From a virus (lineage: Duplodnaviria > Caudoviricetes), in IMG/VR virus record IMGVR_UViG_3300033153_007620, positions 1 through 59,687 of that record: a stretch of DNA of 59,687 nucleotides, one strand, 5' to 3'. How positions within the stretch are numbered: position 1 is the first letter of the stretch; the number at the start of each line of letters is the position of its first letter. A program made the position numbers and the translations under genes. The notes below the pieces were generated by a model, which saw only the letters and a list, made by a program, of their open reading frames with translations, ran no database searches and had not been told where the DNA came from. Positions 1,508-51,808 of the stretch are shown here, in pieces.

Positions 1508-1822
1508 ATGAATGAAGAAAAAGGTAGAATTTGTTCTAAATGCAATACATGGAAACCGTATGGTGAATTCCATAAAAGAAAAGATTCTAAAACTGGATAC
1601 AGAGCTGATTGCAAAAGTTGTACTAAAATTAAAAAGGCAGAATATTATAATGATAACAAGGACATTATAAAAGAAAGACATTCAGAGTATTATCAGCAAA
1701 ATAAAGATAAACTTAATAATAATGCAATTGAATACTATAAATTGCATAGAGAAGATGTAAGAATGCAGCAGGCTGAATACTACAAAAGTAGAAAGGAGAT
1801 ATATAATGGGAAGGAAGAGTAA
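1508..1822 (+). CDS. Zn-finger plus Lys/Tyr helical repeat protein (HNH-endonuclease N-terminal fragment, no nuclease domain)
   Basis: CSKC...CKSC module like those of the neighbouring HNH genes; YY..NK repeats; SD AAGGAG. Confidence 0.6.
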   Translation: MNEEKGRICSKCNTWKPYGEFHKRKDSKTGYRADCKSCTKIKKAEYYNDNKDIIKERHSEYYQQNKDKLNNNAIEYYKLHREDVRMQQAEYYKSRKEIYNGKEE

Positions 1823-3155
1823 AGGGAAAGTAGATGAACATGGGAAAGAATGTACTAAATGTGGGATTTACAAATTATATCCTGAATTTAGTAAACGAAA
1901 ATTAGGTATAAATGGGTACAAAAGTATATGTAAAGTATGCGATAATAAAATCCGCACAGAAAAAAGAAGAGCTAAGGGTATTGAAGCAAAGATAGTACAT
2001 AAACCGGAAGATAAAAAGCGCAAATGTAACTATTGTGGTGAGTACAAATTATATCCTGAATTTGCTAAAAAGAAAGGTGGTGTGAATGGTTATACCAGCA
2101 GATGTAAATTATGCCTAAATAAAATCCAAAATGAAAAAAATAAACAAAATAAAATTGAAACAGAACCAGAATACAAGATAGATGAGGGTGGTAGGGAATG
2201 CGTCATATGTCATGAGTATCAGTTGTGGGATGGTTTTTATAAATCTAAAACTGGCATAAATGGACATGAAAGCCGATGTAAAGTTTGCCTAAAAGAACAA
2301 AGAAGAGCTAAAGGAATTAAAGTAAAACCAGAATATAGAATAGATGAGCACGGAAGAGAGTGTACTTGTTGTGGTAAGTATAGGCTGAAGGAAGTATTTA
2401 GTAAAAAGAAAGACAGTGCGAATGGACATGCAAGTAGGTGTAAAATTTGTGTAGCAGAACAAAAGAAAAAATATAATAAAGAGCACAAAGAAGAGATGTC
2501 TAAAAGTAATAAAAAATATCGTGAAGAACATAAAGAAGAGCTAGCAGAATATAATAAAGAATGGTATAAAGATAATAAAGAACATATAGCAGAATATGGT
2601 AAAACTCGGTATGAAGAAAATAAAGAATACATATTAGAACGACAGAAAAAGTATGAGAAAAAGAATAGAGAAAAAACAAATGAACGCAATAGAGGAAGAT
2701 ATAAAAATGATCCAGAATTTAAATTATCAAGCAATCTTCGTAGTAGAGTAGGTATGGCGTTAAGTGCCCAAAATGCCAAAAAGTTCCACCACACAATGGA
2801 TCTTATAGGATGTAGTCCAGCGTTTTTAATGAGTCATCTCAATGATAATCCTAATGGCTTGAAATTCAAAGATGTTAGTATGCATGGGAATCATAATGAT
2901 CACATCCTTGCTTGTGCAAATTTCAACCTGCATGACACATTAGAACGGTTTATCTGTTTCAACTGGAGAAACCTACAATTATTAAAATCTGGTGATAATG
3001 GTACAAAAGGAACAATATTACCAAATAACGCCAAAGAATTGTATAACGAAATAAAAGACAATGTATTGAAAGACCACCCAGAACTAAAACATTTAAGTAA
3101 ATCATGGGATGTTTGGTGTAATAACATAGGTCAAAAGAAAGATAAGCTAAAATAA
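1806..3155 (+). CDS. HNH homing endonuclease with 4 tandem CxxC..CxxC modules
   Basis: C-terminal DHILAC..FNL..CFNWRNLQLL..DN..K; paralogous to 26886, 29991 and 39456. Confidence 0.8.
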   Translation: MGRKSKGKVDEHGKECTKCGIYKLYPEFSKRKLGINGYKSICKVCDNKIRTEKRRAKGIEAKIVHKPEDKKRKCNYCGEYKLYPEFAKKKGGVNGYTSRCKLCLNKIQNEKNKQNKIETEPEYKIDEGGRECVICHEYQLWDGFYKSKTGINGHESRCKVCLKEQRRAKGIKVKPEYRIDEHGRECTCCGKYRLKEVFSKKKDSANGHASRCKICVAEQKKKYNKEHKEEMSKSNKKYREEHKEELAEYNKEWYKDNKEHIAEYGKTRYEENKEYILERQKKYEKKNREKTNERNRGRYKNDPEFKLSSNLRSRVGMALSAQNAKKFHHTMDLIGCSPAFLMSHLNDNPNGLKFKDVSMHGNHNDHILACANFNLHDTLERFICFNWRNLQLLKSGDNGTKGTILPNNAKELYNEIKDNVLKDHPELKHLSKSWDVWCNNIGQKKDKLK

Positions 3156-11937: not shown

Positions 11938-12694
11938 AATGAAACTACCACTATATAAATACAATCTAATACAGAGCTAATAAACAGCAAATGATAAATA
12001 AGATAATCCTCCACTAATAATATACTATATGAACATAGTTTCATATGTGCATTGTTTCATAGGTCTAGATGTACGTTTCAAGTGTACACAATAAAGATAA
12101 TAAAATAGTGTGTATAATAATACGTAGATAAGCTATAGTATATTATATTAATGTTAGTATAGTTATATAGGAAGTAAAGTTATTGTATAGGCTATAATAA
12201 AAGAGAATTAGAAAAGAATGTAATAGAGAGAACAAAGTTGTTAGTAGTGTAAATGCATAGCAGATAAGAAGATAGATAATAATATGGGAAAATAGGCAGA
12301 TGTTACGGAGATAAGGAAGGCTGGAATTTGTATTCAAATGCAATTGATTGACTAATTGTTTTATATTTATTATCTTACATATGACTAATAAGTGCAAAAT
12401 TGCAATAAATGCATTGATAAGAATTCATAAACACTTCAAATTATATTAGCCGGATAACCTGCTATAAGAGTATATCCCACTAGTACAGGGGGTGGAGTTG
12501 CTTAGGTCGGAAGAGCCTATATGACCTTCTTGTATTCAAGTACGCTCTATTTTGAAAGTCGTGCTATAATTAACTAATAGGGACTTGATATCACACACTA
12601 TAAACAGACCCCCTCTTTGTTATATAGCAAAATTAAGTCTACTCAAATTTTTTTAGAAAATAAATATCTAATAATCCACTATAAGGAGTTTCAT

Positions 12695-13564
12695 GTGATT
12701 AAACGAAAAACAAAAGAGCAATTTAAAAATGAATTTATTAAAAATGCCAGAATTAAATACGGAGATCAATATACTTTTGATAAAGTAAATTATATTAATT
12801 CCCGTACTCCAGTCATTATTACTTGCAAAGATCATGGGGATTTTAAAAGAAAACCCAGTTTGTTTCTTAACGGAAGAACTTGCTCAAAATGTAATGCAGA
12901 CAATACTCTTAATGGAACAGATAAAGAATCCAGAGTAAGATCCTACATAAATAAAGGTAAAAACAAATATGAGGATCAGTATGATTACTCTAAAATAGAA
13001 GAAGATTTTATTGATCGAAATAGCGAGGTGAAAATCATCTGCAAAGACCATGGAGAGTTCACTGTTAAAATGTTGTATCATTTAAGTAACGAAGGAACTT
13101 CTGGATGCAAGGATTGTGGGCATTGGGATTTATCAGCAAAGATCAATAGCAGGTATACTGAAGAACGATTCTCAAATGAGATTAAAGAAATGGGTTTGTA
13201 TGATGTAGTTCTTTCCTCCTTTACTGGTTTAAAGAGTACATGCAAGCTCCTCTGCCCTATTCATGGGGAGTTTGAGCGTATTGCTAGAACTATGTTGCAA
13301 GGAGGTAAATGTCCCGATTGTGATAAAGAAGCAAAAAGAAAAAGAATGAGCAGAACTAAAGAGCAATTTATTGTAGAATCTAAAGGATTATATGACGATC
13401 TTTTTTCTTATGATAAGCTGGAATATAAAAATGATAAAACTGAAGTGGAATTATATTGTAATAAACATTCTAAATATTTTTTTGTTACACCTCATTTCCA
13501 TTTGAATGAATATAGTTACAGTGGATGCAGAGAATGTGATTCTGAACTTAGTAAAGAAAAATAA
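12695..13564 (+). CDS. DUF723-like Zn-ribbon repeat protein (homing-endonuclease-type DNA-binding repeats, no nuclease domain)
   Basis: Four FI..A...YG..YDY....Y....V.I.C..HG.F......L...C..C units; GTG start after AAGGAG. Confidence 0.65.
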   Translation: MIKRKTKEQFKNEFIKNARIKYGDQYTFDKVNYINSRTPVIITCKDHGDFKRKPSLFLNGRTCSKCNADNTLNGTDKESRVRSYINKGKNKYEDQYDYSKIEEDFIDRNSEVKIICKDHGEFTVKMLYHLSNEGTSGCKDCGHWDLSAKINSRYTEERFSNEIKEMGLYDVVLSSFTGLKSTCKLLCPIHGEFERIARTMLQGGKCPDCDKEAKRKRMSRTKEQFIVESKGLYDDLFSYDKLEYKNDKTEVELYCNKHSKYFFVTPHFHLNEYSYSGCRECDSELSKEK

Positions 13565-17534: not shown

Positions 17535-18272
17535 ATGGAAACAGAATTAACTGCCAACGAGAAGAAATCTGCTGGTGTTCAGGCGAGATGGGATAGAGAT
17601 AAACAAATAGAAGGTAGATTGGATAAAAATGATGATCGGGATAGGATGTCAAAAAAATTCAATTATACATGTTTTGACAAACTCCACTTATTTGAAAAAC
17701 AGAAACAATTTATTGTTGTTTTTATGGATGCCCCTCATTTTGGGAGAAAAGAGAATATACAAAAGGCATACCGAGAAGTGTATAATCCTTCTACCGATAA
17801 TAGTTGCCGATCAAATTCTTCTGCAATGTTGGCAAAATCTAAAATCAAAGAGGGGATACTGGCTTACCAGAAGTATAGTCTGTTGAATCACAAGATCGAG
17901 GTAACATCGGAATCTATTGAGAACCTAAGAAGGATGGCAAATTATTCTGTAACTACTTTTTATCGTAGTAATGGCGATCCTAAAGGACTGGATGAGATCG
18001 ATGCGGAGTGGTTAATTTGCATTGACTCTATTGAAGTTGATTATAAAGTAGGAAAGGATTTTGAGAAACGAATTCCTAAATATAAATTGTGTGACAGAAA
18101 AAAGGCAATGGATTCATTGCAAAAACTATTGGGTGTGAGTCAGGAGATGGAGAAGATCGAAGTATCGGTTCCAACTGGTGGGAAGAATATTATTGATAGT
18201 GTTGGAGAGAATAATAGTCAGCCAAGGATAGTATTGAATATGTCTGTTGGGAACCCTTTTAAGGAGGAATAA
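17535..18272 (+). CDS. terS: Terminase small subunit
   Basis: HTH-like N-half (KQKQFI..AYREVY..NSSAMLAK), C-terminal KLCDRKKAMDSLQKLLG, position before TerL. Confidence 0.75.
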   Translation: METELTANEKKSAGVQARWDRDKQIEGRLDKNDDRDRMSKKFNYTCFDKLHLFEKQKQFIVVFMDAPHFGRKENIQKAYREVYNPSTDNSCRSNSSAMLAKSKIKEGILAYQKYSLLNHKIEVTSESIENLRRMANYSVTTFYRSNGDPKGLDEIDAEWLICIDSIEVDYKVGKDFEKRIPKYKLCDRKKAMDSLQKLLGVSQEMEKIEVSVPTGGKNIIDSVGENNSQPRIVLNMSVGNPFKEE

Positions 18273-18273
18273 T

Positions 18274-19638
18274 GTGGGAAAAAAATTAACGACAGATATA
18301 TGCATTCAACGAGCAAAAGCAATACATGGGGATGCATACAGATATGATAAGGTGGAATATTTAGGCAAAGATAAAAATATTTTGATATATTGCAATACCC
18401 ATAAGGAATATTTTTTACAAACACCTCATAATCATTGGGCAGGAAAGGGCTGTTCTAAATGTGGGCGAGAAAAACTTTCTAAAAAACTATCCTCTAATAC
18501 AGCAGAATTTATTGAAAAAGCTAAAATAATTCATGGGGAGATATACTCATATTCAAAAACAGAATATAAAAATAATAATATAAAATTAGAAATATATTGT
18601 AATATTCACAAGGAACATTTTTCACAAACACCAGCATCACATCTTAATGGAAATGGATGTCCAAAATGTGGTTTTGAAAAAATAAGATCAGATAAGCTAC
18701 TTAGTCAAGAAGAATTCATGATTAAAGCTAAAACTTTAAATGGAAGTTCTTTAGATTACACAAATACCATATATAAAAATATGATAACTCCAATCGAAGT
18801 ACATTGCCCTACACATGGTATTTTTTCACAGTTGCCTTTAAATCACCTTAGACGTAAAGGCTGTCCTTTATGTAATATAGAAGCTAAACATTTTGATAGT
18901 AGAAATAATACTGAAAGTTTTATAGGAGTATCTTCGGAAATACATAATAACAAGTATGATTACTCTTTAACAAATTATGAGTTTTCAAATAAAAAAGTTA
19001 AAATCATCTGCCCTATACATGGGATGTTTGAACAGACCCCCACAGACCATTTGGCTGGAAAAGGTTGTAAAAAATGCGGATTTGAAAAAGTATGGGATAG
19101 CAGAGGAAGAACTACTACAGAAGAGTTTATTGCAAAGGCAAAAAAAGTCCATAAGAATACTTATGACTATTCCGTATCAAAGTATGTAAAAAGTAATCAC
19201 AAGATTAAAATTATATGTAGAAAGCATGGTTTATTTGAGCAGACACCAAATAAACATCTTTGTGGTAGTGGTTGTCCAGAGTGCGCTAGAGAAAATAGAT
19301 CTGGAAAAAATAGCCCACGATATAAAGATGGTAAATCTGATATTCGACGTAAAGAGAGAAAAACACCAGAAAATGAAAAATGGGCAAAAGATGTGAAAAA
19401 ACAAAAAACATCTTGTGATTGTTGTGAGGATGTCTTTGACAAAATTACTATATCTCACGCACATCATTTAAATTCGTGGGCAGATTATCCAAAAGAAAGA
19501 TATGATTTGAATAATGGCGTAGCAATATGTGGTGTTTGTCATTGGGAATTTCACGGAAAGTATGGACATGGAGAAAATACAATGGGACAGTATTATCAAT
19601 TCAAACAGATAAAACAAATGGAGAATATCTATGGCTAA
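18274..19638 (+). CDS. HNH homing endonuclease with 5 DUF723-like Zn repeats
   Basis: C-terminal CDCC..HAHHLNSW..NNGVAICGVCHWEFH; GTG start after AGGAGG. Confidence 0.8.
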   Translation: MGKKLTTDICIQRAKAIHGDAYRYDKVEYLGKDKNILIYCNTHKEYFLQTPHNHWAGKGCSKCGREKLSKKLSSNTAEFIEKAKIIHGEIYSYSKTEYKNNNIKLEIYCNIHKEHFSQTPASHLNGNGCPKCGFEKIRSDKLLSQEEFMIKAKTLNGSSLDYTNTIYKNMITPIEVHCPTHGIFSQLPLNHLRRKGCPLCNIEAKHFDSRNNTESFIGVSSEIHNNKYDYSLTNYEFSNKKVKIICPIHGMFEQTPTDHLAGKGCKKCGFEKVWDSRGRTTTEEFIAKAKKVHKNTYDYSVSKYVKSNHKIKIICRKHGLFEQTPNKHLCGSGCPECARENRSGKNSPRYKDGKSDIRRKERKTPENEKWAKDVKKQKTSCDCCEDVFDKITISHAHHLNSWADYPKERYDLNNGVAICGVCHWEFHGKYGHGENTMGQYYQFKQIKQMENIYG

Positions 19639-23381: not shown

Positions 23382-23496
23382 TTGACAAATAATGGATATA
23401 GTTTTTCATACTTATAGTATGAAAAATTAATAACTGTCTTTTTCTCGATCGAGACTGACAGTGAAAATTGTCAGGAGAGGGAGACAGATTATTATG
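23382..23496 (+). promoter_or_regulatory. HNH leader copy A: promoter, minigene MKN, RBS-sequestering hairpin
   Basis: TTGACA-19-CATACT-6-ATGAAAAATTAA; stem CTGTCTTTTTCTC/GAGAGGGAGACAG. Confidence 0.75.
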
Positions 23497-24455
23497 AGTA
23501 AAAAATTATCACAAGAAGAATGGGTTGAAAAAGCATACAAAATGCACGGAGATAAGTATGGCTATTCTAAATCTATATATAAAGGAAATAAAATTCCAGT
23601 AGATATTTATTGTAAGATCCATAAAAAATATTTTACACAAACTCCTAAAAACCATATGAGAGGACAAGGCTGTCCTGATTGTGGGAGGGAAAGTTCCATA
23701 CAAGCTGTAAGGTACACACAAGAGAAATTTTTTAAAAAATGTATAAAAATTCATGGAGATAAGTATGACTACTCTACATCTATTTATTTAGGGTCTGAAC
23801 AAGAAGTAGAGATTTTCTGTAAAAAGCATAATTTGTATTTTACACAAAAAGCTTCTGCGCATTTAAGAGGACATGGATGCCCCACATGCTCCAAGAATAA
23901 GAAATCGAATAATAATGAGTTTATTACAAAATCCATGCAAATCCATGCAAATATATACAATTATTGTTTAGTAAATTATATTAATAATAAAACAAAAGTT
24001 AAGATTATTTGTAATAAACATGGAATTTTTGCAATTAGCCCGGATCACCATTTGCGTGGGAATGGTGGCAAAGGAAGAGGATGTCCCACATGTTCCAAAG
24101 AGAATATAAGTAATAGAATTACTGGCAAAACAAATCCAAATTATAAACATGGAAGAACTAAATATTGCAGCAATGAAAGAAATACCCCTGAGAATTACCA
24201 ATGGATGAAAGCAATTAAAAAAGATAAGATTTGCTGTGATTGTTGTGATGTAGTTTTTCTAAAGAAATGAAAAGTGTAGCACATCATTTAAATTCTTGGA
24301 TGGATAATATGGATCAAAGGTATAACTTGAATAATGGGGTTTGTATTTGTGAAAAATGTCATGCTAAATTCCATAATGGCTATGGTTGGGGACATAATTC
24401 AAAACAACAATATGAAAATTTTAAAGAGAGGGAATATCATGACAACAAGCAATGA
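23494..24455 (+). pseudogene. HNH endonuclease with DUF723-like repeats, -1 frameshift at T5 run 24254-24258
   Basis: CDCCDVVF continues as SKEMKSVAHHLNSW..NNGVCICEKCHAKFH in the -1 frame, collinear with paralog 18274. Confidence 0.75.
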
Positions 24456-25539: not shown

Positions 25540-26826
25540 ATGACAAATACAGAATGGCTGTTAGAAAAATGCCCATCACCAATGGATAGTGCTGATCTGA
25601 TAAATTTATATGATGAGCTATGTGAGTATCAGGGATCTCATATGTCTTCTGAATCATTTAAACGGCTTTGTAGGAAAACAGCACAAGAATATAGAGACAA
25701 TGCAGAAATATCAACAGAAACAGATAATTTAAAAGATACAGAAGTATTATTAGATAAATTGAATGAGACAGATAATAAATTAGAGTTATCTTTGAAGAGC
25801 TATAAGATTCAGGATGTAGAGGCCGCCGCTAAAATAGCTGGGATAGATTTGAGCAAGTGGAGGTGTATTAGGAAGAAAGTTAAAGCAACACAGAACGCGT
25901 CTAATCCTTATTTTATCGTTGAAGGTTCTTTTGCCCCTAAAGAAGAAGATGAGATCACGCCTGAAAAATACGCCGAAAGATTCAAAGATTTGGTGGAAGA
26001 TTATGAACCTCCGGTTCCACCACTCCTAAAGACAAAAATAGACCCTAAAAACAGAATGGCTGAGATTTGCATCATGGACTTTCACTACGGACAGTTAAGT
26101 TGGGATGAAGAAACTAGAGATGATAACTATAATATTGAGATAGCTTCTAAATTGTTGGATGGCACAATTGATCATTTTATTCAAGAAACAGAAGGAAAGA
26201 TTGACAGATATGTACTTCCAATCGGAAATGACTTTTTTAATTGCAATACGAAAGCCAATACAACATTTGGAGGAACACCACAAGATGAAGATGGGCATTT
26301 CAAACATACTCATCTTACAGCAGAAGCACTCTGGGTAAAGCAAATAGATAAATTAAATACTGTTGCAGATGTAGAGGTTGTCTTAATTTCTGGCAATCAC
26401 GATGAGGAAAGACTCTGGTATCTTGGGCAGTTTTTATTTGCTTGGTATAGAAATAATTCATCTGTGATTATAGATAATTCTCCTCCACAGAGAAAATATA
26501 TTAGATATGGTAGAAATCTTTTAGGCTTTACACACGGAAATAAAGAAATCCGAAACTCTCTGCCTTTATTGATGGCACAGGAAATGCCTATAGATTTCTC
26601 TGAAACTAAATTTCGAGAATGGAATATTGGACACCTACATAGCTATTCTGAAAAGAATACAAGACTTGTTAAAGAAACTCATGGGATTAGGGAAATTGTA
26701 TTACCTTCGTTAGTACCTTTGGACTCATGGCACTCTGGTAAAGGATATATGCATTTGAATGAGGCTATGTGTTTTATATGGGATAAAGAGAAAGGAAAGG
26801 TGATGACACATTATTTCCATCCATAA
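25540..26826 (+). CDS. Calcineurin-like metallophosphoesterase
   Basis: DFHYG, GNDFFN, GNHD, THG, GHLH motifs. Confidence 0.8.
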   Translation: MTNTEWLLEKCPSPMDSADLINLYDELCEYQGSHMSSESFKRLCRKTAQEYRDNAEISTETDNLKDTEVLLDKLNETDNKLELSLKSYKIQDVEAAAKIAGIDLSKWRCIRKKVKATQNASNPYFIVEGSFAPKEEDEITPEKYAERFKDLVEDYEPPVPPLLKTKIDPKNRMAEICIMDFHYGQLSWDEETRDDNYNIEIASKLLDGTIDHFIQETEGKIDRYVLPIGNDFFNCNTKANTTFGGTPQDEDGHFKHTHLTAEALWVKQIDKLNTVADVEVVLISGNHDEERLWYLGQFLFAWYRNNSSVIIDNSPPQRKYIRYGRNLLGFTHGNKEIRNSLPLLMAQEMPIDFSETKFREWNIGHLHSYSEKNTRLVKETHGIREIVLPSLVPLDSWHSGKGYMHLNEAMCFIWDKEKGKVMTHYFHP

Positions 26827-26839
26827 AATAAAAAAGTAC

Positions 26840-26882
26840 TTGACAAATTCTCCTATATGGATTATTGTTGTTATCAGGAGGA
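26840..26882 (+). promoter_or_regulatory. Promoter whose spacer carries an anti-SD for the downstream HNH gene
   Basis: TTGACA-17-TATTGT; TTCTCCT (26848-54) complementary to AGGAGGA (26876-82). Confidence 0.55.
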
Positions 26883-26885
26883 AAT

Positions 26886-27671
26886 ATGAAAACTTTTGAG
26901 AAGAATATGAAAGAAATATTAGGAGATGATATTTATTTTAGTAAAAATAAAACAGAAAGGAAAATAGCATTAAATAAAGTGGGATATAAACTATGCCATA
27001 CCTGTGAAACAATTAAAAAGTTAGACGAATTTGGAAAAGGCAAATATACGTGGGATGGAAAAAATCATGCTTGCCTTTCTTGTATGATAAAGAAGCGCAC
27101 AACGTATAAGAAGACACTTACGCCTGAGCAGTTAGAGAATCAGAAAAAATATACAAGAAATTATCAAAAAAGTTGGAGAGCTAATTTAAAAAAGAATGAT
27201 ATTGAAAAATTCAGAGAACTAAATAGGAAAAAGAAAGCACAGTTCAAAAAGAATCACCCAGAAAAATTTAGAGAAATGATGAAACTTCAGGCTAGGAGAA
27301 GACGTTCTCACAATGCCCATAGCCGAATACGACATACATTAGCTGCAAGGATGGTATCCGCTTTACAAAGACAAGATACATCTAAAAAAAGTAGCACATT
27401 TGATCTTATAGGAGAAACACCTGCGTTTCTAGTAAATTATCTCAACACAATTGCATCCAACGGACTAAAATATGGAGATAAAAATGTACAAGTAGATCAC
27501 ATAATTCCATGTGCATTTTTTGATCTAACAAGTGAATTAGAACAAAGAATATGTTTTAACTATAGAAATTTACAATTACTTTTAGCAAATGATAATAGGA
27601 TAAAGAGTGACACTCTGCCATATAATTTAGATGAATTATATAATGAAATAGAAGGACATCATCAACGATGA
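26886..27671 (+). CDS. HNH homing endonuclease (1 Zn module)
   Basis: VDHIIPCAFFDL..CFNYRNLQLL..DN..K. Confidence 0.8.
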   Translation: MKTFEKNMKEILGDDIYFSKNKTERKIALNKVGYKLCHTCETIKKLDEFGKGKYTWDGKNHACLSCMIKKRTTYKKTLTPEQLENQKKYTRNYQKSWRANLKKNDIEKFRELNRKKKAQFKKNHPEKFREMMKLQARRRRSHNAHSRIRHTLAARMVSALQRQDTSKKSSTFDLIGETPAFLVNYLNTIASNGLKYGDKNVQVDHIIPCAFFDLTSELEQRICFNYRNLQLLLANDNRIKSDTLPYNLDELYNEIEGHHQR

Positions 27672-28194: not shown

Positions 28195-28587
28195 TTGACA
28201 GAAACAGAAAACCAAGAATTAGACTATCTGCTTGGAGAATACGAAGAGAAAATGTTTGATATTGCTACAAGGTACGCAGACTATGAAGGAGTGTGTGTTT
28301 GTGGTGATGAGACTGACCCACATTTTCGATACACACTGCACCCAGATGTAATGAGTTTATGTTTGTACGCTTTGAGGAAGGAAGATTTTGATTCATTTGA
28401 GATATTACTGTTACTAAATGATATTATGATTAGTAGCGAGCTGGAAGACAATGAGGAAGAACATACTGACAGTAGAATTGATGAGTTAACTGAAATTAAT
28501 ATGGAGCATTACCGCAATAACACTGATTGGAAGAATCCACTTCATGTGGAGAAATTATTAAAAAGAAATTCAAAAAGAGGAAGATGA
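28195..28587 (+). CDS. Acidic hypothetical protein
   Basis: TTG start after GAGGA. Confidence 0.55.
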   Translation: MTETENQELDYLLGEYEEKMFDIATRYADYEGVCVCGDETDPHFRYTLHPDVMSLCLYALRKEDFDSFEILLLLNDIMISSELEDNEEEHTDSRIDELTEINMEHYRNNTDWKNPLHVEKLLKRNSKRGR

Positions 28588-29120
28588 AAATGAAAGAAGA
28601 AAGAGTTTTTAAACCAGAGATGTGGAAGGAAGGTATATTAGAACATATAACAAAGACACCGGGGGTATTACGTTATGGCACTAAAGTTGGAAAATTAAGA
28701 AAAGCAAATAAAGTTATCATTGCCAACGAAGTACTCATAGATACTCTGGAAAGAATAATAGCGGTACAAGACATACCACTTGTATTTGAAGAAAAATGTA
28801 GAGTTATAGCTCATAAGATGGTAGTCTCATTCAGAGATCACATTCACCGTTCATTGAGAATAAATACGTATGTATTTAAATATAAATTCAAATATAAATT
28901 TAAATATATGTATGAAATAAACAGCGTAACTATAGCACAAATAGCAGATAATGAATTTGCTATGGAAGTTCACTATGATTTTGCGATGAAAAGAAAGAGA
29001 TCTTTCCTTGGTCTTTTTAATACAAGTATAGAAGAAAAGTTGCAGAAAATAGATGAAATTCCTGATACCACTAAACGCAGGGATAAATTAAAGAAGTACA
29101 TGGATAAGTACGCAGTTTAG
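28584..29120 (+). CDS. Hypothetical protein with capsid-like N-terminus and scaffold-like C-terminal motif
   Basis: FKPEMW..I (cf. capsid FKPTIW..I); ends LQKIDEIPDTTKRRDKLKKYM. Confidence 0.6.
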   Translation: MKMKEERVFKPEMWKEGILEHITKTPGVLRYGTKVGKLRKANKVIIANEVLIDTLERIIAVQDIPLVFEEKCRVIAHKMVVSFRDHIHRSLRINTYVFKYKFKYKFKYMYEINSVTIAQIADNEFAMEVHYDFAMKRKRSFLGLFNTSIEEKLQKIDEIPDTTKRRDKLKKYMDKYAV

Positions 29121-29144
29121 ATATAATAAGTAAAGGAAGTACAG

Positions 29145-29912
29145 ATGAGAAAAGTGACATTAGAAGAATTTAAAAGTTGGAATCCTACAGAAGAATTATT
29201 AGAATTTTTTATTATAAATAATTTTGATAATTTTGATTTTGATATGATTGACAACATTGGAATGGATGATGGATGGTATATTAGAGATTTGAGTGAATTG
29301 TCTAAAGTAAAAAGAAAGTTTGATGTTCATGGAAAAATAATTAGAGAGGAATACCCAGATATGGTATTTTTGAATCATTATGATAAACATGGATACATAA
29401 TAGAGGAATTGGTTGCTACAAACAGATATCGTATTTTTGAGTATGATGACAAAGGCTCCTGCCGAGTTACATATCCAGAAGGATATATGATTGTCAAAGA
29501 TTTATCAGAAATTTTTAGGAATAATGGGTATACTCGTTATCCTATGAAAGCTCATGTTGATACAAATAGAGTTTATGAATATGATTCTACAGGTAATATA
29601 ATAAAATCTATTTACTTGCCAAAATGCACCATTACTGAATATAAAATTGAATACAATAATGGCACTATTTCTTCTATAAAAAAAGTACATAGTGGAAAAA
29701 GTATAGATTTAAACGATATAGATGAAATAAAAGAAAATACCTTACGAGAGCTTATTCTAGCAACATATAATTATAGATGCGATGAAGAGAAAGATAGGAT
29801 TTCCAAAATACAAAAAGAGGATCTACAGAAGATCAATAATATCGAAGATACTGTTGTACGCAGGGAGGAACTAAAGAAATATATGAACGAACACGCCTGT
29901 TCAGAATACTGA
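29145..29912 (+). CDS. YD/RHS-like repeat protein with scaffold-like C-terminal motif
   Basis: YDKHGYIIEE, FEYDDKG, YEYDSTGNIIK; ends LQKINNIEDTVVRREELKKYM. Confidence 0.6.
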   Translation: MRKVTLEEFKSWNPTEELLEFFIINNFDNFDFDMIDNIGMDDGWYIRDLSELSKVKRKFDVHGKIIREEYPDMVFLNHYDKHGYIIEELVATNRYRIFEYDDKGSCRVTYPEGYMIVKDLSEIFRNNGYTRYPMKAHVDTNRVYEYDSTGNIIKSIYLPKCTITEYKIEYNNGTISSIKKVHSGKSIDLNDIDEIKENTLRELILATYNYRCDEEKDRISKIQKEDLQKINNIEDTVVRREELKKYMNEHACSEY

Positions 29913-29993
29913 GTAAATGGATAAACAATAACTTTCTTTCTCTTATGCTAGAACGATGGTTATGTACTATTAGGAGAAAGAAAGGTTATTATG
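29905..29993 (+). promoter_or_regulatory. HNH leader copy B (degenerate): minigene MDKQ and RBS hairpin
   Basis: AATACT-6-ATGGATAAACAATAA; stem AATAACTTTCTTTCTCTT/AGGAGAAAGAAAGGTTATT. Confidence 0.65.
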
Positions 29994-31160
29994 GGAAAGA
30001 GTAAATGGAAGATAGACGAGTATGGAAGACAGTGTACTAAATGTGGAGAATATAAATTATGGGAAGAATTTGGTAAAAGTAAAAGAGGAGTACAGGGATA
30101 TAAATGCCAATGTAAATCTTGTAGAAACCAAAAAAGTGCAAAAAAACGAAGGGATATAGGTATTAAAATAAGTACCAAATGGAAAATAGATGAGCATGGC
30201 AGGGAATGTGCTTGTTGTAAGAAATATAAATCGTGGGATAACTTTACTAAATCAAAATCAAGGAGAACTGGTTATTCTAGTACATGTAGAGTTTGTAATA
30301 ATAAAATTCAAATGAGGAAAAGAAGAAATACTGGAGTTCAAATAAGGCATGTATATAAAATAGATGATAAAGGTAGAGAATGTACTGTTTGTGGTGTTTA
30401 TAAGTTATACGATGAGTTTTCTCCAAGTAAAAAGGGTATGTATGGATACCAAAGCAAATGCAGATTCTGTGTAAATAAAATGGGAATACAACAAAGAAGA
30501 GTGGAAGGGATTATAGCAAGACCAAAATACTATATGGATACTAACGGTAGATACTGTAGTAAATGTAAACAATACAAAGTATGGAAAAATTTTAATAAAG
30601 ATAATAAAGATAATAAAGGTATAAATGAATATGGGAGTATATGTAAATCATGTAAAGCAAAAAGAAGTGCACAATATCATAAACAAAATAAAGAAATTAT
30701 AGCAAAGAAAGGAGCCAAATGGCGTAGAGAAAATAAAGAACACATAAAAGAACGTCAGAAGATTAGACTTCAAAATGACCCAGAGTATAAACTGACAAGA
30801 AAGCTTCGTAGTAGAGTACGTAGTGCTATAAAAGCTCAAAACACTAAAAAGTCCGGTCACACAATGAAGCTCATTGGTTGCTCTCCAAAATTCCTTATTA
30901 ACCATTTTAATACTGCAGCTTCTAATGGTTTAAAATTTGGAAACAAAGACATAGAAGTGGATCACATCATTCCCTGTATATCATTTAATTTATCTGATGA
31001 ATTAGAACAATACATTTGTTTTAACTGGAGAAATCAGCAATTACTAACAGCGTTTGATAATCGGTCTAAACATGATACACCTCCTGATAATGTCGAAGAA
31101 TTATATAATGACATAAAAGAGCATGTCTTAAAAGACAATCCTCATTTAATTATAAATTAA
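29991..31160 (+). CDS. HNH homing endonuclease with 4 Zn modules
   Basis: VDHIIPCISFNL..CFNWRNQQLL..DN.SK. Confidence 0.8.
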   Translation: MGKSKWKIDEYGRQCTKCGEYKLWEEFGKSKRGVQGYKCQCKSCRNQKSAKKRRDIGIKISTKWKIDEHGRECACCKKYKSWDNFTKSKSRRTGYSSTCRVCNNKIQMRKRRNTGVQIRHVYKIDDKGRECTVCGVYKLYDEFSPSKKGMYGYQSKCRFCVNKMGIQQRRVEGIIARPKYYMDTNGRYCSKCKQYKVWKNFNKDNKDNKGINEYGSICKSCKAKRSAQYHKQNKEIIAKKGAKWRRENKEHIKERQKIRLQNDPEYKLTRKLRSRVRSAIKAQNTKKSGHTMKLIGCSPKFLINHFNTAASNGLKFGNKDIEVDHIIPCISFNLSDELEQYICFNWRNQQLLTAFDNRSKHDTPPDNVEELYNDIKEHVLKDNPHLIIN

Positions 31161-31493: not shown

Positions 31494-32288
31494 ATGATGG
31501 GTTATTTTGATGAAGTAGTGATGCCCTCTTTGAAAGAAGGTAGTGATGTAGGTGTCCTTAAGACAGGATTTGATGAGTATGTGTCAAAACAAAATGAGGA
31601 GTTTTCAAAAGGGTTGCGGGAAAATCGTGACACGATCTTGGATGAGAAGAAAACTTTAGCAGGACAGTATAAAGATGTTCAGGAGAAGTATGCTTTCCTA
31701 GATGGAAAGGAATTCAATGCCGAAGCATACAATAAGTTAAACTCTGATTTAGAATCTTATCAGGCAAGTGCCAACAAAAATGAGGAAGAATTCAGACAGC
31801 AGTTAACAGATCAGTATGAGAAAGGTAAGAAATCTTATGAAGAAACTATTACCCCTACAATTAATTCCCTTAACCTTAAATTAGAAGAATCTAATAATCT
31901 GAGGGATGATTACCAGACTAAGTATAAAAATTACTTAAAAGACAGTGCGCTTAGACAGTCTCTTGCCAGAATAGGTGCTGAACCAGATGAGTTCTGGTTT
32001 GAAGGTTTTAAACAATCAGCAAAAGTTGATTATGATGAAGCTGGAGGCATTAAAGGTATTTCCATTAAACATGATGGAGGATACATTCCCCGTGAAGATT
32101 GGGAAAAGATTTTTCCAACAACTGATCGTGGAAAGAAAATGATCAAAACTTTGATCAACACTGGGATGGGAGCAACTGGAAGTGGAACTGGAAAAGGTGG
32201 AGCAACTACACTCGAAGACATAAATAGTATTGAAGATGCTACTGCACGAAGAGCTGCATTAGCTAAATACATGGAAGGTAAAAGTTAA
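31494..32288 (+). CDS. Capsid scaffolding protein
   Basis: Coiled-coil, Gly-rich linker (GMGATGSGTGKGG), short C-terminal helix pair; directly before capsid gene. Confidence 0.75.
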   Translation: MMGYFDEVVMPSLKEGSDVGVLKTGFDEYVSKQNEEFSKGLRENRDTILDEKKTLAGQYKDVQEKYAFLDGKEFNAEAYNKLNSDLESYQASANKNEEEFRQQLTDQYEKGKKSYEETITPTINSLNLKLEESNNLRDDYQTKYKNYLKDSALRQSLARIGAEPDEFWFEGFKQSAKVDYDEAGGIKGISIKHDGGYIPREDWEKIFPTTDRGKKMIKTLINTGMGATGSGTGKGGATTLEDINSIEDATARRAALAKYMEGKS

Positions 32289-32335: not shown

Positions 32336-33175
32336 ATGGCAATCGACAATTTTAAACCGACCATTTGGTCAGATCTTATTTTTATGGAGTATGATAAATC
32401 TCTTGTATTTGCTCCTCTTATGAATCGTGATTATGAAGGCGAAATTCAGGGTGGTGGAGATAAAGTAAAAATCAATGAGATCGGAGATGTGACAACTAAT
32501 ACTTATTCTGGTACTGTTAACTATGAAGATCCCAAAGATGCTTCTAAATTTCTTCTTATAGACCAGCAGAAATATGCTGCTGTAACTGTAGAAGATATTG
32601 ATCAGGCACAGGCAAAACCTAAAGTTATGGGAAAAATTGCAAATAGAATCGGATTTTCTCTTGCAGAAGATATGGATACCTATCTTGCAACTCTAGCTGA
32701 TGAAGCTGGACTTACGACTGATTTAGGTACCACAGGTACTCCTCTTTCTGTAACATCAGGGACAGTAACTAATGTTCTTTCTCAGGTTGCACAACAGATG
32801 GATGAAGCAAATAACCCACAGGGTGGCAGAATAGCTGTCGTTCCTCCTTGGTTTGGGCAGAAACTTACTTTGGCAAAAATCACAAAAGACACCAATAACA
32901 GTGAAACACTGACTACTGGTTATATTGGGACTTATTATGGCTTTGACATTTACCAGAGTAATAACATTTCTCATAGTGGGACAACTTGGTATAAACCTAT
33001 GTTCTTCCTTAGAAATGATTCTATTGCATTTGCTGAACAGCTTATGAAAACAGAAGCCATGAGATCTGAAACTGCTTTTGCAGATAGACTTAGAAGCTTG
33101 GCTGTATATGGAGCCAAAGTAACAAGACCTAATTCTCTTGCAGTTGTAGTATGTGCTGCTGGAGCAGAATCTTAA
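32336..33175 (+). CDS. Major capsid protein (P22 coat-like HK97 fold)
   Basis: FKPTIWS..NRDYEGEI..GDKVKI..LLIDQQKY..VEDID; FADRLRSLAVYGAKVTRP. Confidence 0.9.
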   Translation: MAIDNFKPTIWSDLIFMEYDKSLVFAPLMNRDYEGEIQGGGDKVKINEIGDVTTNTYSGTVNYEDPKDASKFLLIDQQKYAAVTVEDIDQAQAKPKVMGKIANRIGFSLAEDMDTYLATLADEAGLTTDLGTTGTPLSVTSGTVTNVLSQVAQQMDEANNPQGGRIAVVPPWFGQKLTLAKITKDTNNSETLTTGYIGTYYGFDIYQSNNISHSGTTWYKPMFFLRNDSIAFAEQLMKTEAMRSETAFADRLRSLAVYGAKVTRPNSLAVVVCAAGAES

Positions 33176-33190
33176 TAAAAGGATTTATTA

Positions 33191-33412
33191 ATGGCAAAAG
33201 CTAAGAAAGAATCTACAGCAGAAAATAAACCTGCTGTAGAGGTTAAAGAAAAGAAGATTGAACCAAAAGTGGAGAAAGTTATTAAACCAGAAGTTCAGGA
33301 AAAGGTGGAAGAGCCTAAACTTAAAAAAGAAAAGTCTCCTTGTGATGACTGTTCTATAGTATTTGATAGTGCTCCTTGTAAAAGTTGTGTTATCTACAAA
33401 CGAAAAAAATAA
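33191..33412 (+). CDS. Small K/E/P-rich protein with CxxC pair
   Basis: ORF with SD after capsid gene. Confidence 0.55.
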   Translation: MAKAKKESTAENKPAVEVKEKKIEPKVEKVIKPEVQEKVEEPKLKKEKSPCDDCSIVFDSAPCKSCVIYKRKK

Positions 33413-39339: not shown

Positions 39340-39458
39340 TTGACAGATTTAGTATTCCATGCTATAATGATAGTATGAGTAAATAAAAATAACTTTCTTT
39401 CTCTCGATCGAGACTGGTAGTTATAAAAATTATCAGGAGAGAAAGGAAGATTATTATG
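39340..39458 (+). promoter_or_regulatory. HNH leader copy C: promoter, minigene MSK, RBS hairpin
   Basis: TTGACA-17-TATAAT-6-ATGAGTAAATAA; stem CTTTCTTTCTCTC/GAGAGAAAGGAAG. Confidence 0.8.
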
Positions 39459-40595
39459 AAAAAAAGTGAATGTTTAATAACAGAAGAAGGAAGGGAATGC
39501 ACTTGTTGTGGTGTATTTAAAAAATGGGAAGGATACCATAAAGATAAAACTAGTTCAACTGGACATGGTACACAATGTAAAGTTTGTAAAAATAAAAAAG
39601 ATGCCAAACGAAGAAGATCTCAAGGAATGAATATAAGATCAGAATATGAAGTAGACGAGCACGGTAGAGAATGTACTTGTTGTGGAGAATATAAGTTATA
39701 TGCTGAATTTTATAAAGATAAAAATGGCATTAATAGCTATGACAGTAGATGTAAACTATGTACTAATACAATAAATACAGAAAAAAGAAGATTGGCAGGA
39801 ATGAAACCCCTATCTGAATCAAAGATTGATGATGATGGCAGAGAATGTTCTGAGTGTGGCATTTATAAATTATGGAAAGGTTTCAACAAACAGACAACAG
39901 GCATAAATGGACATAGTAATAATTGTAGAGTATGTGCAGCAAAAAGGCATTCAGAATGGTATAAAAAGAGTACAAAGAATAAAAAGAGTCGAAGGGATAT
40001 AGCACAGGAGAAATATTCAATAGATGAATATGGGCGCAAATGTACTGAATGTGGTGTGTATAAGTTCTGGGAAAATTTCTATGCTCAGAAAACTGGCATT
40101 CATGAGCATACTGCTAAATGTAAATCTAAAAAAACAAAAAGACACAAGAAATACCAAGAAGAACATAGAGAAGAGGCAAATAAACGTGATAGAGATAGAC
40201 GTAAAAATGACCCAGAATACCGATTAAAGGATATACTTCGTAGAAGATTACATGACGCTCTTACTTCTCAAAATGCTAAAAAATTTGACCATACAATGGA
40301 TCTCATAGGCTGTACTCCCAAGTTTCTTCTTAACCACCTGAACACAGTTGCTTCTAATGGATTGAAATTCGAAGATAAAGAAATTCAAGTAGATCATATT
40401 ATTCCGTGTGCAGCATTTAATTTACAAGACGAATTAGAGCAGCTTGTTTGTTTTAATTGGAGAAATTGCCAACTATTAACGGCAACAGATAATAGTTCTA
40501 AAAATGATAAATTGCCCATTAACGCCGAAGAATTACGTAATGAAATAAAAGAGGAAGTATTAAAAGAACGCCCACATTTAGCAAATACTGTATAA
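39456..40595 (+). CDS. HNH homing endonuclease with 4 Zn modules
   Basis: VDHIIPCAAFNL..CFNWRNCQLL..DNSSK. Confidence 0.8.
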   Translation: MKKSECLITEEGRECTCCGVFKKWEGYHKDKTSSTGHGTQCKVCKNKKDAKRRRSQGMNIRSEYEVDEHGRECTCCGEYKLYAEFYKDKNGINSYDSRCKLCTNTINTEKRRLAGMKPLSESKIDDDGRECSECGIYKLWKGFNKQTTGINGHSNNCRVCAAKRHSEWYKKSTKNKKSRRDIAQEKYSIDEYGRKCTECGVYKFWENFYAQKTGIHEHTAKCKSKKTKRHKKYQEEHREEANKRDRDRRKNDPEYRLKDILRRRLHDALTSQNAKKFDHTMDLIGCTPKFLLNHLNTVASNGLKFEDKEIQVDHIIPCAAFNLQDELEQLVCFNWRNCQLLTATDNSSKNDKLPINAEELRNEIKEEVLKERPHLANTV

Positions 40596-43236: not shown

Positions 43237-43359
43237 TTGACAGATTTAGGAAAGTGTGTTATACTTACAGTATGAAAAAATTAAATTAATAACTGTCTTC
43301 TTCTTCGTACGAAGCTGATAGTTGTAAAATTATCAGGAAGAGGGAGACAGTGTTTTATG
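43237..43359 (+). promoter_or_regulatory. HNH leader copy D: promoter, minigene MKKLN, RBS hairpin
   Basis: TTGACA-17-TATACT-6-ATGAAAAAATTAAATTAA; stem CTGTCTTCTTCTTC/GAAGAGGGAGACAG. Confidence 0.8.
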
Positions 43360-44286
43360 CCAAAGAAGTTAACGTATGAGTTTGTAAAGGGGATGTTTGA
43401 GGAAGGTGGATGTGAACTTGTTTCAACGGAGTATGTAAATGATGATACCAGATTACAATACATGTGTTCATGTGGAAATCTTGAGATACAAAAAATTACA
43501 TATGCAAGTTTCCGAAAAGGACGTAGATGTAAGAAATGTGGTACAGAAAGAAGAGCTTCCCTCAGACGCCATTCTTACGCTTTTATACAATCTGAATTTG
43601 AGAAAGCAGGATGTAAATTACTCTCATCAGAATATATGAATAAAGATACAATCTTAAAGTACATGTGTTCATGCGGTAATTCAGAAGTACAGAAGATTAC
43701 TTATGGGGCGTTCCGAATAGGACACCGCTGTAAAAAATGTGGTATTGAAAAAATTGCTTCTTCCAGACGATTATCCTATGATTATGTTAAATCAGAATTT
43801 GAAAAAGCTGGATGCAAATTACTTTCAACAGAATACATAAATAATAGACAATATCTGAAATATTATTGTTCGTGTGGAAATCCTAAAATACAAAAGATTG
43901 TTTATAGTGCTTTTCAAAAGGGACATCGTTGCAACAAATGTGGCATCGAAAAACGTCAAGGTGAAAATAGCCACAATTGGAGTTATACTTTAACACAAGA
44001 GGAAAGGGAAACAGGTCGCAATTATCCTGAATACAAGCAATGGATAAAAGATATCTATAAACGTGATCATTACGCTTGTCAAAAATGTGGGAGCAAAAAA
44101 AGTGGGAATCTAAATGCTCATCATATTGCTGGTTATACTCAAAATAAAGATCTAAGGATAGAACTTTCAAATGGTGTAACATTATGTAAAGATTGCCACA
44201 AAGAGTTCCATAAAAAATATTCTTATACTAAGTCCACTCCAGCAGATTTTCAAGAGTTTATGCAGGAAAAGAAAGTTCCTAACTAG
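43357..44286 (+). CDS. HNH homing endonuclease with 3 GC.L.S.EY..YxCSCGN..RCxxC repeats
   Basis: RDHYACQKCG..LNAHHI..NGVTLCKDCHKEFH. Confidence 0.85.
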   Translation: MPKKLTYEFVKGMFEEGGCELVSTEYVNDDTRLQYMCSCGNLEIQKITYASFRKGRRCKKCGTERRASLRRHSYAFIQSEFEKAGCKLLSSEYMNKDTILKYMCSCGNSEVQKITYGAFRIGHRCKKCGIEKIASSRRLSYDYVKSEFEKAGCKLLSTEYINNRQYLKYYCSCGNPKIQKIVYSAFQKGHRCNKCGIEKRQGENSHNWSYTLTQEERETGRNYPEYKQWIKDIYKRDHYACQKCGSKKSGNLNAHHIAGYTQNKDLRIELSNGVTLCKDCHKEFHKKYSYTKSTPADFQEFMQEKKVPN

Positions 44287-45976: not shown

Positions 45977-46570
45977 ATGAATAAAGAATTAATTGAAGAA
46001 TGGAAAGATATTGAGGGATACGAAGGAAAATACCAAATAAGTAATTATGGATATGTTAAATCCCTTGCACAAGGCAATCCAAAAAAAGTACAAGATAGGA
46101 TTTTAAAATTTGGGAAAAATCACAAAGGCTATTTACGTGCAGTACTATATCAAAATGGAAAACGTAAATACATTGCTGTCCATAAATTAGTAGCACAAAC
46201 ATTCTTATTCGATTATGATTCTGCAAAGCAAATAGATCATAAAGATTTGAATAGATTAAATAATCGAGTAGGTAATTTGAGAATGTGTACACAGGGACAA
46301 AATCAAGGAAATTCACCTAAAATAACTAAGAAATGTTCTTCTATATTTAAAGGGGTTCGTTGGAGAAAAGACAATCGGAAGTGGAGTACACACATCACTT
46401 ATGATCACAAGACTTATGTATTAGGTTGTTTTACCACGCAAATAAAAGCAGCTAAAGCCTATGATAGAAAGGCTATTGAATTATTTGGGGAGTTTGTCTA
46501 CACTAATGAGAAAAATGGATTATACCAACAATATTATATATTGCTAGAAGAAGGAAAGATTGGAGCATAG
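45977..46570 (+). CDS. NUMOD4-HNH-AP2 homing endonuclease
   Basis: EEWKDIEGYEGKYQISNYG; IDHKDLNRLNNRVGNLR; SSIFKGV.W..AAKAYD. Confidence 0.9.
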   Translation: MNKELIEEWKDIEGYEGKYQISNYGYVKSLAQGNPKKVQDRILKFGKNHKGYLRAVLYQNGKRKYIAVHKLVAQTFLFDYDSAKQIDHKDLNRLNNRVGNLRMCTQGQNQGNSPKITKKCSSIFKGVRWRKDNRKWSTHITYDHKTYVLGCFTTQIKAAKAYDRKAIELFGEFVYTNEKNGLYQQYYILLEEGKIGA

Positions 46571-51082: not shown

Positions 51083-51808
51083 TTGGGATTTACTAAAGAA
51101 GATAAGATAGAAAGGGATGAGTTATTTAGCAGAGGTTTAAAAAAATGCAGTAAATGTAATAGGATAAAACAAACATCTGAGTTTCATAAAAGTAATAAAG
51201 AGTTTAATAATCTACGTTCCGTATGTAAAGAATGTAGAAGCACACACATTCATATTCCAATAATTGATTTGCCTAATGAGATATGGAAAGATATTAGAGG
51301 GTACAAAGGATTATATCAAATTAGTAATATGGGTAGAATCAAAAATCTTAATTATCAGAGAAGTGGAAAAGAACAATTAATGAAATTAAGAATGGATAAA
51401 AAGAATTATTTATATATTAATTTGTATAGAGAGAATAATGATATAGTTCGGTCTTTTCAAGTCCATAGATTAGTACTTATAACATTTGTTGGGAATTGTC
51501 CAGAGAATTTTGAGTGTGATCATCTTGATAGAAATCCATCCAATAATAAATTAGAAAATCTTAAATGGAAAACAAAAATAGATAACCTTAAAAATATGGG
51601 AGCACATAAAGATAGTACTAGTAAATTTAAAGGTGTGTGTTGGGATACATCCAGAAAGAAATGGTTAACTACTATAAGTATTGCTAAGAAACAATACCAT
51701 TTAGGTAGATTTAATAATGAAATAAGAGCGGCAAAAGCATACGATGCAATCGCTAAAGAAAATGGATTTACAACCAATAAAATGTTAGGATTACTAAAAG
51801 GAGTTTAA
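51083..51808 (+). CDS. Zn-finger-NUMOD4-HNH-AP2 homing endonuclease
   Basis: EIWKDIRGYKGLYQISNMG; CDHLDRNPSNNKLENL; TSKFKGVCW..AAKAYD. Confidence 0.85.
   Translation: MGFTKEDKIERDELFSRGLKKCSKCNRIKQTSEFHKSNKEFNNLRSVCKECRSTHIHIPIIDLPNEIWKDIRGYKGLYQISNMGRIKNLNYQRSGKEQLMKLRMDKKNYLYINLYRENNDIVRSFQVHRLVLITFVGNCPENFECDHLDRNPSNNKLENLKWKTKIDNLKNMGAHKDSTSKFKGVCWDTSRKKWLTTISIAKKQYHLGRFNNEIRAAKAYDAIAKENGFTTNKMLGLLKGV

Follow-up and report, generated by a model that had tools for sequence, protein, structure and literature searches.

Why should two accessory genes in the head operon of a phage end in what reads as the tail of that phage's scaffolding protein? The question is raised by virus record IMGVR_UViG_3300033153_007620, which is 59,687 bases long, has a G+C content of 33% and constitutes its entire assembly; we refer to this whole stretch as the window. 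Its + strand carries a siphovirus-type structural module, in which the gene for a head scaffolding protein of 264 amino acids (31494..32288) lies directly upstream of that for the major capsid protein, here called the coat protein (279 amino acids; 32336..33175). Upstream of both, on the same strand, are two orphan open reading frames (ORFs), ORF 28590 (28590..29120) and ORF 29145 (29145..29912). The original prediction, made from the letters of the DNA, described their products as non-structural proteins ending in the scaffold's capsid-binding motif, a candidate tag for loading cargo into the capsid; the label 'non-structural' is an assumption. Here we find that both ORFs carry C-terminal copies of the scaffold tail, which may take their products into the procapsid as internal passengers.

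Scaffold-like tails on two orphan proteins

The 21-residue motif L..I..I.D...RR..L.KYM has exactly three matches in the six-frame translation of the window, and a looser residue-class version of the pattern returns the same three places only. These matches lie at 29040..29102 (tag copy 1, the C-terminal scaffold-like tail of ORF 28590), 29823..29885 (tag copy 2, that of ORF 29145) and 32211..32273 (the original, in the scaffold), all on the + strand. Their translations are those quoted in the original prediction, and the motif is indeed close to the C-terminus in all three proteins, with 5, 8 and 4 residues, respectively, between it and the stop. The assignment of the third host as a scaffold also held, as this protein matches phrog_206 (E 1.1e-11) and is encoded beside a head protein matching phrog_267 (E 1.1e-59). 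The short fragment L.KYM alone gave one extra, unrelated match at 20966. A hidden Markov model (HMM) of the tail scored 44.5 bits for tag 1, 49.1 bits for tag 2 and 54.0 bits for the scaffold, with the next best score in the window at −0.7; neither the pattern nor the HMM revealed further, decayed or out-of-frame copies.

An independent profile drew on scaffold tails taken from four other phages and included neither the tags nor the scaffold of the window. When 7572 ORFs (those of the window together with those of 160 loci) were searched with this foreign-tail profile, the two best non-scaffold matches were ORF 29145, at E 4.6e-5, and, at E 7.9e-3, the ORF that ends at 29120; the next had E 0.86. 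Because both ORFs rank straight after the scaffolds, the tail copies are real and far beyond chance. In single-sequence AlphaFold2 models, a helix-turn-helix is predicted over both tags, after a non-helical stretch, with a mean predicted local distance difference test (pLDDT) score of only 37 and 42.

The similarity between the two tagged ORFs spans 28 residues, and ORF 28590 resembles the scaffold over 22–24 residues only. For ORF 28590, this agrees with the claim that the motif sits on otherwise unrelated proteins. For ORF 29145 the claim is less secure, as a low-confidence alignment runs colinearly with the last ~85 scaffold residues by both BLASTP and hhalign (32% identity; hhalign probability 70%). 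ORF 29145 may thus hold an old partial copy of the C-terminal third of the scaffold. If this ancestry is real, the block just ahead of the Gly-rich linker, strongly conserved in scaffold orthologues, has decayed and the tail has not.

The pattern of substitution within the tail bears on whether the copies have been maintained. In six scaffold orthologues, nine of the 21 positions either do not vary or show only conservative substitutions (three aliphatics spaced i, i+3 and i+6; an Asp; an Arg; an aliphatic; a Lys; an aromatic; and a Met), and both tags retain nine of nine (9/9). One Arg and one Lys in the second helix are invariant in the six scaffold tails and in both tags. By contrast, at the remaining 12, variable positions the tags match the scaffold of the window at only 2/12 and 3/12; when a match to any of the six scaffolds is counted, the figures are 3/12 and 6/12 (Fisher p 0.0007 and 0.017). 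The two tags share 14 of 21 residues with each other, encoded by different codons at 8 of those 14, and share fewer, 11–12 of 21, with the scaffold. Nucleotide identity among the three copies is 37–42 of 63 (37–41 of 63 to the scaffold copy), which, together with many synonymous differences, rules out a fresh duplication. The retention of 9/9 constrained positions, the few variable matches and the many synonymous differences indicate that the copies are old and have kept their key residues; as judged from these alignments, the tags are selectively conserved at the positions that are constrained in the scaffold. Both tags share residues with the type of tail found in the relative L081 and in the protein P0017, and a single acquisition, possibly from the scaffold of another phage, may be the origin of both.

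These observations bear directly on a neutral explanation, in which pieces of the scaffold 3′ end were duplicated into a recombination hot-spot by illegitimate or endonuclease-stimulated events and came to lie in frame by chance on spurious or functionless ORFs. Neutral decay would not be expected to spare the nine scaffold-constrained positions while altering 9–10 of the 12 others as well as synonymous sites. Moreover, both copies are in frame near the stops of long ORFs with ribosome-binding sites, and decayed or out-of-frame copies are absent from the rest of the window. The 240 nt upstream of either tag resemble the scaffold gene at the DNA level no more than expected by chance, the score being reached by 194/300 and 214/300 shuffles. 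Between the two tagged ORFs themselves, there is one AT-rich local DNA match that is reached by 2/300 shuffles and a shared 17-mer with 16/17 matches in different reading frames, both of which are suggestive only. Although other features of the locus, described below, speak for recombinational debris, we regard this explanation as improbable.

A predicted complex with the coat protein

The tail that the tags copy follows a Gly-rich linker in the scaffold and is conserved in the scaffold orthologues of L001, L081, L003 and L002 and in P0017; overall, the scaffold is 76% identical to its orthologue in L001, 61% in L081, 54% in L003 and 42% in L002. A profile of the coat protein family matches the solved chain 8e16_I (E 5.8e-65). 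The scaffold profile gave no significant match among solved structures, the best being a histidine kinase at E 0.0079. The proposal that the tail is a coat-binding module is drawn by analogy from the scaffolds of P22 and 80alpha. Residues 268–303 of the P22 scaffold form a helix-turn-helix that is essential for assembly, and cargo fused to P22 scaffold fragments that keep this C-terminal element is encapsidated in vivo (PMC9962691). In 80alpha, the C-terminal 16–21 residues of the scaffold and of CpmB, a protein of the satellite SaPI1, bind the coat N-arm alike and are interchangeable; CpmB, like the P22 fusions, enters the procapsid (PMC5644958). The precedents invoked in the original prediction, namely the P22 and 80alpha scaffold tails and the T4 targeting peptides, agree with these accounts and with that of T4 (PMC5644958, PMC9962691, PMC9024508). 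Like a P22-type coat-binding tail, the scaffold copy in the window stands at the extreme C-terminus, 4 residues from the stop, of a phrog_206 protein encoded beside the coat gene, and it has conserved basic residues (one Arg and one Lys) in its second helix, which may have a role in binding.

The complex between the coat protein and the ORF 29145 tail was predicted from alignments that we assembled ourselves, of 78 rows for the coat and 7 rows for the tail. The interaction prediction score from aligned errors (ipSAE) was 0.52 (0.50, 0.55 and 0.52 in separate runs), with a partner pLDDT of 78–80 and at least 94% of contacts in agreement between runs. Three controls, in which the partner was replaced twice and the coat once (by an unrelated protein), scored 0.01, 0.00 and 0.01. 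As a calibration, the ipSAE mark is reached by 58 of 80 solved complexes and by 2 of 110 mismatched pairs, and scores of up to 0.60 comprise 7 of those 80 complexes and both of the mismatches. The prediction lends weak support to docking of the ORF 29145 tail on the coat protein.

A functional tail need not have the coat as its partner. The portal, the MuF-like head protein, the terminase or a host chaperone could be bound instead, with the two ORFs recruited there. Coat binding of the scaffold tail rests on analogy in this family, and P22 scaffolds also contact the portal (PMC5529062, PMC13386823). However, the extreme C-terminus is the coat-binding part in both P22 and 80alpha (PMC9962691, PMC5644958), and the model placed the tail on the coat, at 0.52 against 0.01 when an unrelated protein took the place of the coat. 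We consider a different partner very unlikely.

In the wider coat family (scaffold ORFs of L004–L160), many C-termini carry a different, analogous tail after a Gly- or Pro-rich linker, of the form hydrophobic-x-x-I/V-x-x-M-S/T-x-x-E-I-N-x-N-W-D/E-x-V. A C-terminal two-helix tail thus seems to be general in this coat family, with a sequence type that depends on the clade.

An insertion hot-spot beside the scaffold gene

The closest relatives of the phage are metagenomic, with coat proteins 76% (L001), 75% (L081), 71% (L003) and 67% (L002 and L082) identical to that of the window; L001 comes from a 168,384-base record that CheckV rates as complete. Relatives measure 126–168 kb, and the window, at 59.7 kb, is a fragment. 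In a collection of 50,697 phage records, there was no DNA-level match to the window, and coat identity stayed below 37%. The conserved left neighbour of the tagged region is a metallophosphatase-type exonuclease gene (25540..26826, +; phrog_704, E 9.6e-64). In L002 and L003, no long ORF separates the exonuclease orthologue from the scaffold gene that follows it, and in L001 a gene in the exonuclease position is followed by a Cas12f1-like gene, a repeat array, an HNH gene and the scaffold gene. In the window, this junction measures 4.7 kb and holds, in order, an HNH endonuclease gene (26865..27671, +; phrog_1035, E 1e-07), an ORF of 67 amino acids, an acidic orphan ORF without a tag (28195..28587, +; 130 amino acids, pI 4.46) whose stop codon runs into the first ATG of the gene that follows, the two tagged ORFs, and a second HNH endonuclease gene directly upstream of the scaffold gene (29991..31160, +; phrog_1035, E 7.4e-25). 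Because the relatives fill the junction differently, the tagged genes are best described as accessory cargo of an insertion hot-spot by the scaffold gene. Integrase and satellite genes are absent from the block; the HNH endonuclease genes are all that it has of this kind.

The L001 junction has features of its own (L001:5938-7843). Its Cas12f1-like/TnpB protein (447 amino acids) matches Pfam PF07282 at E 6.8e-23, and the gene is followed by five direct repeats (86–100% identical over 37 nt) and a degenerate sixth (65%), spaced 61–66 nt apart. The arrangement resembles a type V CRISPR array in miniature, lodged in the head module of a phage.

Both tagged genes have ribosome-binding sites and are packed into the + strand head operon. 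No + strand terminator-like site was found between 26.8 and 31.5 kb, and both genes are therefore probably co-transcribed with the head genes. The first had been taken to start at 28584; Shine–Dalgarno spacing favours ATG 28590, which sits 8 nt after GAGG, over ATG 28584, which overlaps the stop of the acidic ORF, and 28590 is most likely the start. The product has 176 amino acids (178 from ATG 28584), is basic (pI 9.65, net +12; 21 kDa) and is modelled as all-helical, with low confidence, by single-sequence AlphaFold2. At 28870-28912, within this ORF, a short AT-rich tandem repeat that is also a near-palindrome encodes a Lys-Tyr-Lys-Phe run. ORF 29145, with AGGA 7 nt before its ATG, encodes an acidic protein of 255 amino acids (pI 5.18; 31 kDa) with a beta-rich body in a low-confidence model. 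Two YD-like motifs were found in this body by pattern, and its nearest look-alikes are viral RHS-repeat clusters (feature score 0.85; structural TM 0.42–0.47), which provide a lead only; the protein could not be placed in RHS_repeat PF05593 or among YD-shell proteins, and Pfam gave nothing for it with the threshold relaxed to E 10.

Neither tagged ORF matches Pfam or PHROGs. Homologues of either body were found neither among proteins of near length in a word-indexed set of 5.8 billion proteins, nor in the 50,697 phage records by tblastn (E up to 1), nor in G001, a complete 168-kb relative. It is here that recombinational debris finds its support: the block lies between two HNH genes in a junction with varied content among relatives, the window contains at least 10 HNH endonuclease ORFs, both tagged ORFs are orphans with a G+C content of 0.29–0.31 as compared with 0.37–0.38 in the core head genes, and no other instance turned up in the collections searched.

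The extent of those searches can be stated precisely. In an ORF-tail scan, the last 45 residues of every ORF were compared with the C-terminal 30 residues of its cognate scaffold across 144 sources with a scaffold ORF (143 loci and the window) out of 157 with a coat gene, several of which are the same record twice; the loci cover up to 10 kb on each side of the coat gene. The two ORFs of the window scored 59 and 52, the next best of 5688 cognate comparisons scored 40, and the maximum of 27,088 non-cognate comparisons was 45. A tagged non-scaffold ORF was found in none of the 143 other scaffold-bearing loci. Against 1,835,955,588 cluster representatives, the tail profile returned 11 proteins at E up to 0.001, and the match was full-length and C-terminal in three of them, the two tagged ORFs and one scaffold. 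A 45-column tail profile, searched against the longer proteins of the 5.8-billion set (7999 scored candidates), returned seven proteins at E up to 10, comprising five scaffolds of 263–266 amino acids and the two tagged ORFs. The idea of a modular tag that tracks the cognate scaffold tail on varied cargo thus found no support in the 143 loci, in G001 or in either protein collection. Among the papers listed by literature searches, none described a phage that has its scaffold tail on proteins of its own other than the scaffold.

The eight remaining proteins from the cluster-representative search were set aside, as the match in each is spread over 3–24 stretches; P0006, P0008, P0011 and P0013 are internally repetitive, and P0005, P0010, P0012 and P0014 were judged on the match table alone. 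P0006 (1576 amino acids) has an N-terminal hydrophobic signal-like segment and repeated hairpin-like units that resemble the tail (E 5.4e-14, five stretches), from which it appears that the tail may resemble a generic helical-hairpin repeat.

On the + strand, the structural module also includes the small and large terminase genes (17535 and 20161), the portal gene (21559) and a gene for a MuF-like head protein (24334), and the adaptor, neck, tail, tape measure and central fibre genes are also present in the window. Scattered through the structural genes are at least 10 ORFs of HNH or endonuclease VII-like type (1806-3155, 12617-13564, 18247-19638, 23461-24270, 26865-27671, 29991-31160, 39456-40595, 43357-44286, 45977-46570 and 51083-51808). 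Several of the HNH ORFs have tandem zinc-finger-like repeats, and that at 29991-31160 has four, at 174-nt spacing, in 30003-30599. The window had no Rfam match, whether to a group I intron or to any other structured RNA near the HNH genes. Immediately downstream of the coat gene, the window (33191-33412) and two relatives (L001:10864-11154; L002:3926-4201) encode a conserved small basic protein, rich in Lys and Glu, with four cysteines in a C-terminal motif. This protein has no PHROG match in the window and may be a decoration or head-associated zinc-binding protein.

Possible passengers of the procapsid or modulators of its assembly

The reading that we tentatively prefer is that scaffold-tail mimicry takes both proteins into the procapsid as internal passengers, and we put its chances slightly below even. 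The last ~25 residues of the scaffold would fold into a small helix-turn-helix and bind the coat on its inner face during procapsid assembly, and two accessory genes of the head operon would have acquired diverged copies of this tail at their C-termini. The basic, helical 21-kDa protein and the acidic, beta-rich 31-kDa protein would be made late, together with coat and scaffold, would occupy a share of the scaffold-binding sites and would end up inside the procapsid. Afterwards, they might stay and be ejected with the DNA, or leave as the scaffold does.

Several points weigh against this preferred reading. The L001, L002 and L003 junctions are without both tagged genes, G001 has the tail once, on its scaffold only, and in the searches of 1.84 and 5.8 billion proteins the tail was confined to scaffolds and these two ORFs. 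The case comes from one genome, so that, without relatives that carry the tags, neither co-variation with the scaffold nor other comparative support can be drawn on, and because both bodies are orphans, purifying selection on them is unmeasurable. The constraint test covers 21 columns, and the conserved positions may merely serve the folding of the hairpin. Binding of the coat by the scaffold tail in this family is argued by analogy. Finally, the ipSAE of 0.52 falls in a range that is more often wrong than right unless the interaction was likely beforehand, and, because the tail alignment included scaffold tails, it reflects scaffold-tail likeness as much as tag binding.

The evidence for a functional tail (the tail scan, the predicted complex, the constraint and the foreign-tail profile) would serve equally well if the tagged proteins were modulators of assembly, which compete for the coat site and thereby tune the scaffold-to-coat ratio, the capsid size or nucleation, or poison the assembly of co-infecting relatives. 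They would then correspond to the satellite protein CpmB but be encoded by the phage itself; CpmB shares the C-terminal helix-and-hook of the scaffold, binds the coat alike and redirects capsid size (PMC5644958). ORF 28590 is modelled, with low confidence, as all-helical, as scaffolds and CpmB are, and ORF 29145 may keep ~85 residues of scaffold ancestry. The tags, moreover, are closer to each other (14/21) than to the scaffold of the window and may come from the scaffold of another phage, and selfish HNH endonuclease genes stand on both sides of the block that holds the tagged genes. However, the tagged genes belong to the head operon of the phage itself and not to a satellite, and competition with its own scaffold would be costly unless they were weakly expressed. 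No oligomerization domain is identifiable in the tagged proteins, the beta-rich body of ORF 29145 is unlike a scaffold, and no relative carries the genes, which would make them dispensable for assembly in this lineage. On balance, a role as modulators strikes us as unlikely.

Returning to the passenger reading, the known systems differ in how closely they fit it. In lambda (C/Nu3) and the herpesviruses (UL26/UL26.5), nested protease and scaffold genes share one C-terminus, and their products reach the procapsid via the coat-binding sequence. The shared tail there is identical and encoded by in-frame overlapping genes, whereas in the window the diverged copies belong to three separate genes. 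A basic protein of 21 kDa within the head would recall the internal proteins of other phages. The targeting signals of T4 address the scaffold core and are removed by the prohead protease; no prohead protease gene was recognized in the window. T4 internal proteins and P1 DarB provide a parallel in that short peptides send unrelated, accessory and variable proteins into the head for delivery with the DNA, but those signals are N-terminal (PMC9024508). In the window, all three proteins bear the shared segment at the C-terminus, and it mimics the scaffold itself.

Encapsulin cargo peptides are likewise short, C-terminal and borne by varied cargo, and they attach to the interior of an HK97-fold shell (PMC8346489, PMC11866011). 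Encapsulins, however, are cellular compartments without portal, terminase or DNA, and the peptide types are unrelated in sequence; the locus in the window is surrounded by terminase, portal, MuF-like, adaptor, tape measure and tail genes. In the engineered P22 system, the C-terminal helix-turn-helix (as part of scaffold residues 141–303 or 238–303) likewise stands behind an unrelated protein (PMC9962691), but this is a laboratory construct that keeps more of the scaffold, whereas here the arrangement would be natural and ~25 residues are shared. The comparison with SaPI1 CpmB and the 80alpha scaffold, gp46, is similarly close: a non-scaffold protein ends in a copy of the coat-binding tail of the scaffold, with similarity confined to the tail (PMC5644958), and homology of the C-terminus to the scaffold of the cognate phage, the mark of a CpmB-type competing scaffold, is found in the two tagged ORFs. 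As described in that source, CpmB is satellite-encoded, small, dimeric and helical, with a helix-and-hook RIIK motif (PMC5644958); the tagged ORFs, by contrast, lie within the head operon of the phage, in the stretch from the exonuclease gene to the scaffold gene, and place a different motif, predicted to be of a ~25-residue helix-turn-helix type, on two unrelated bodies, one of them beta-rich. By analogy, then, the present case would work most like CpmB/gp46 and the engineered P22 system.

A bolder form of the passenger reading is that the scaffold hairpin acts as a portable, encapsulin-like cargo-loading peptide that packs the basic 21-kDa protein and the YD-repeat-like 31-kDa protein for delivery with the DNA, which we consider possible but doubtful. 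New cargo could then be recruited by the gain of ~25 codons in an endonuclease-flanked hypervariable cassette beside the scaffold gene. The case concerns two small orphan genes of one metagenomic phage and rests on a single genome. If it is correct, internal and ejected proteins, which are hard to predict, would become recognizable by a sequence rule, as non-scaffold ORFs that end in the tail of the cognate scaffold; applied to the 144 scaffold-bearing sources, this rule returns the present case only, which suggests that the phenomenon is rare or usually too diverged to see. The tagged proteins would also provide a natural counterpart of P22 nanotechnology, in which a scaffold tail of ~25 residues loads arbitrary proteins into an HK97-fold capsid, and a single mechanism would link phage scaffolds, the size-determination proteins of satellites and the cargo-loading peptides of encapsulins.

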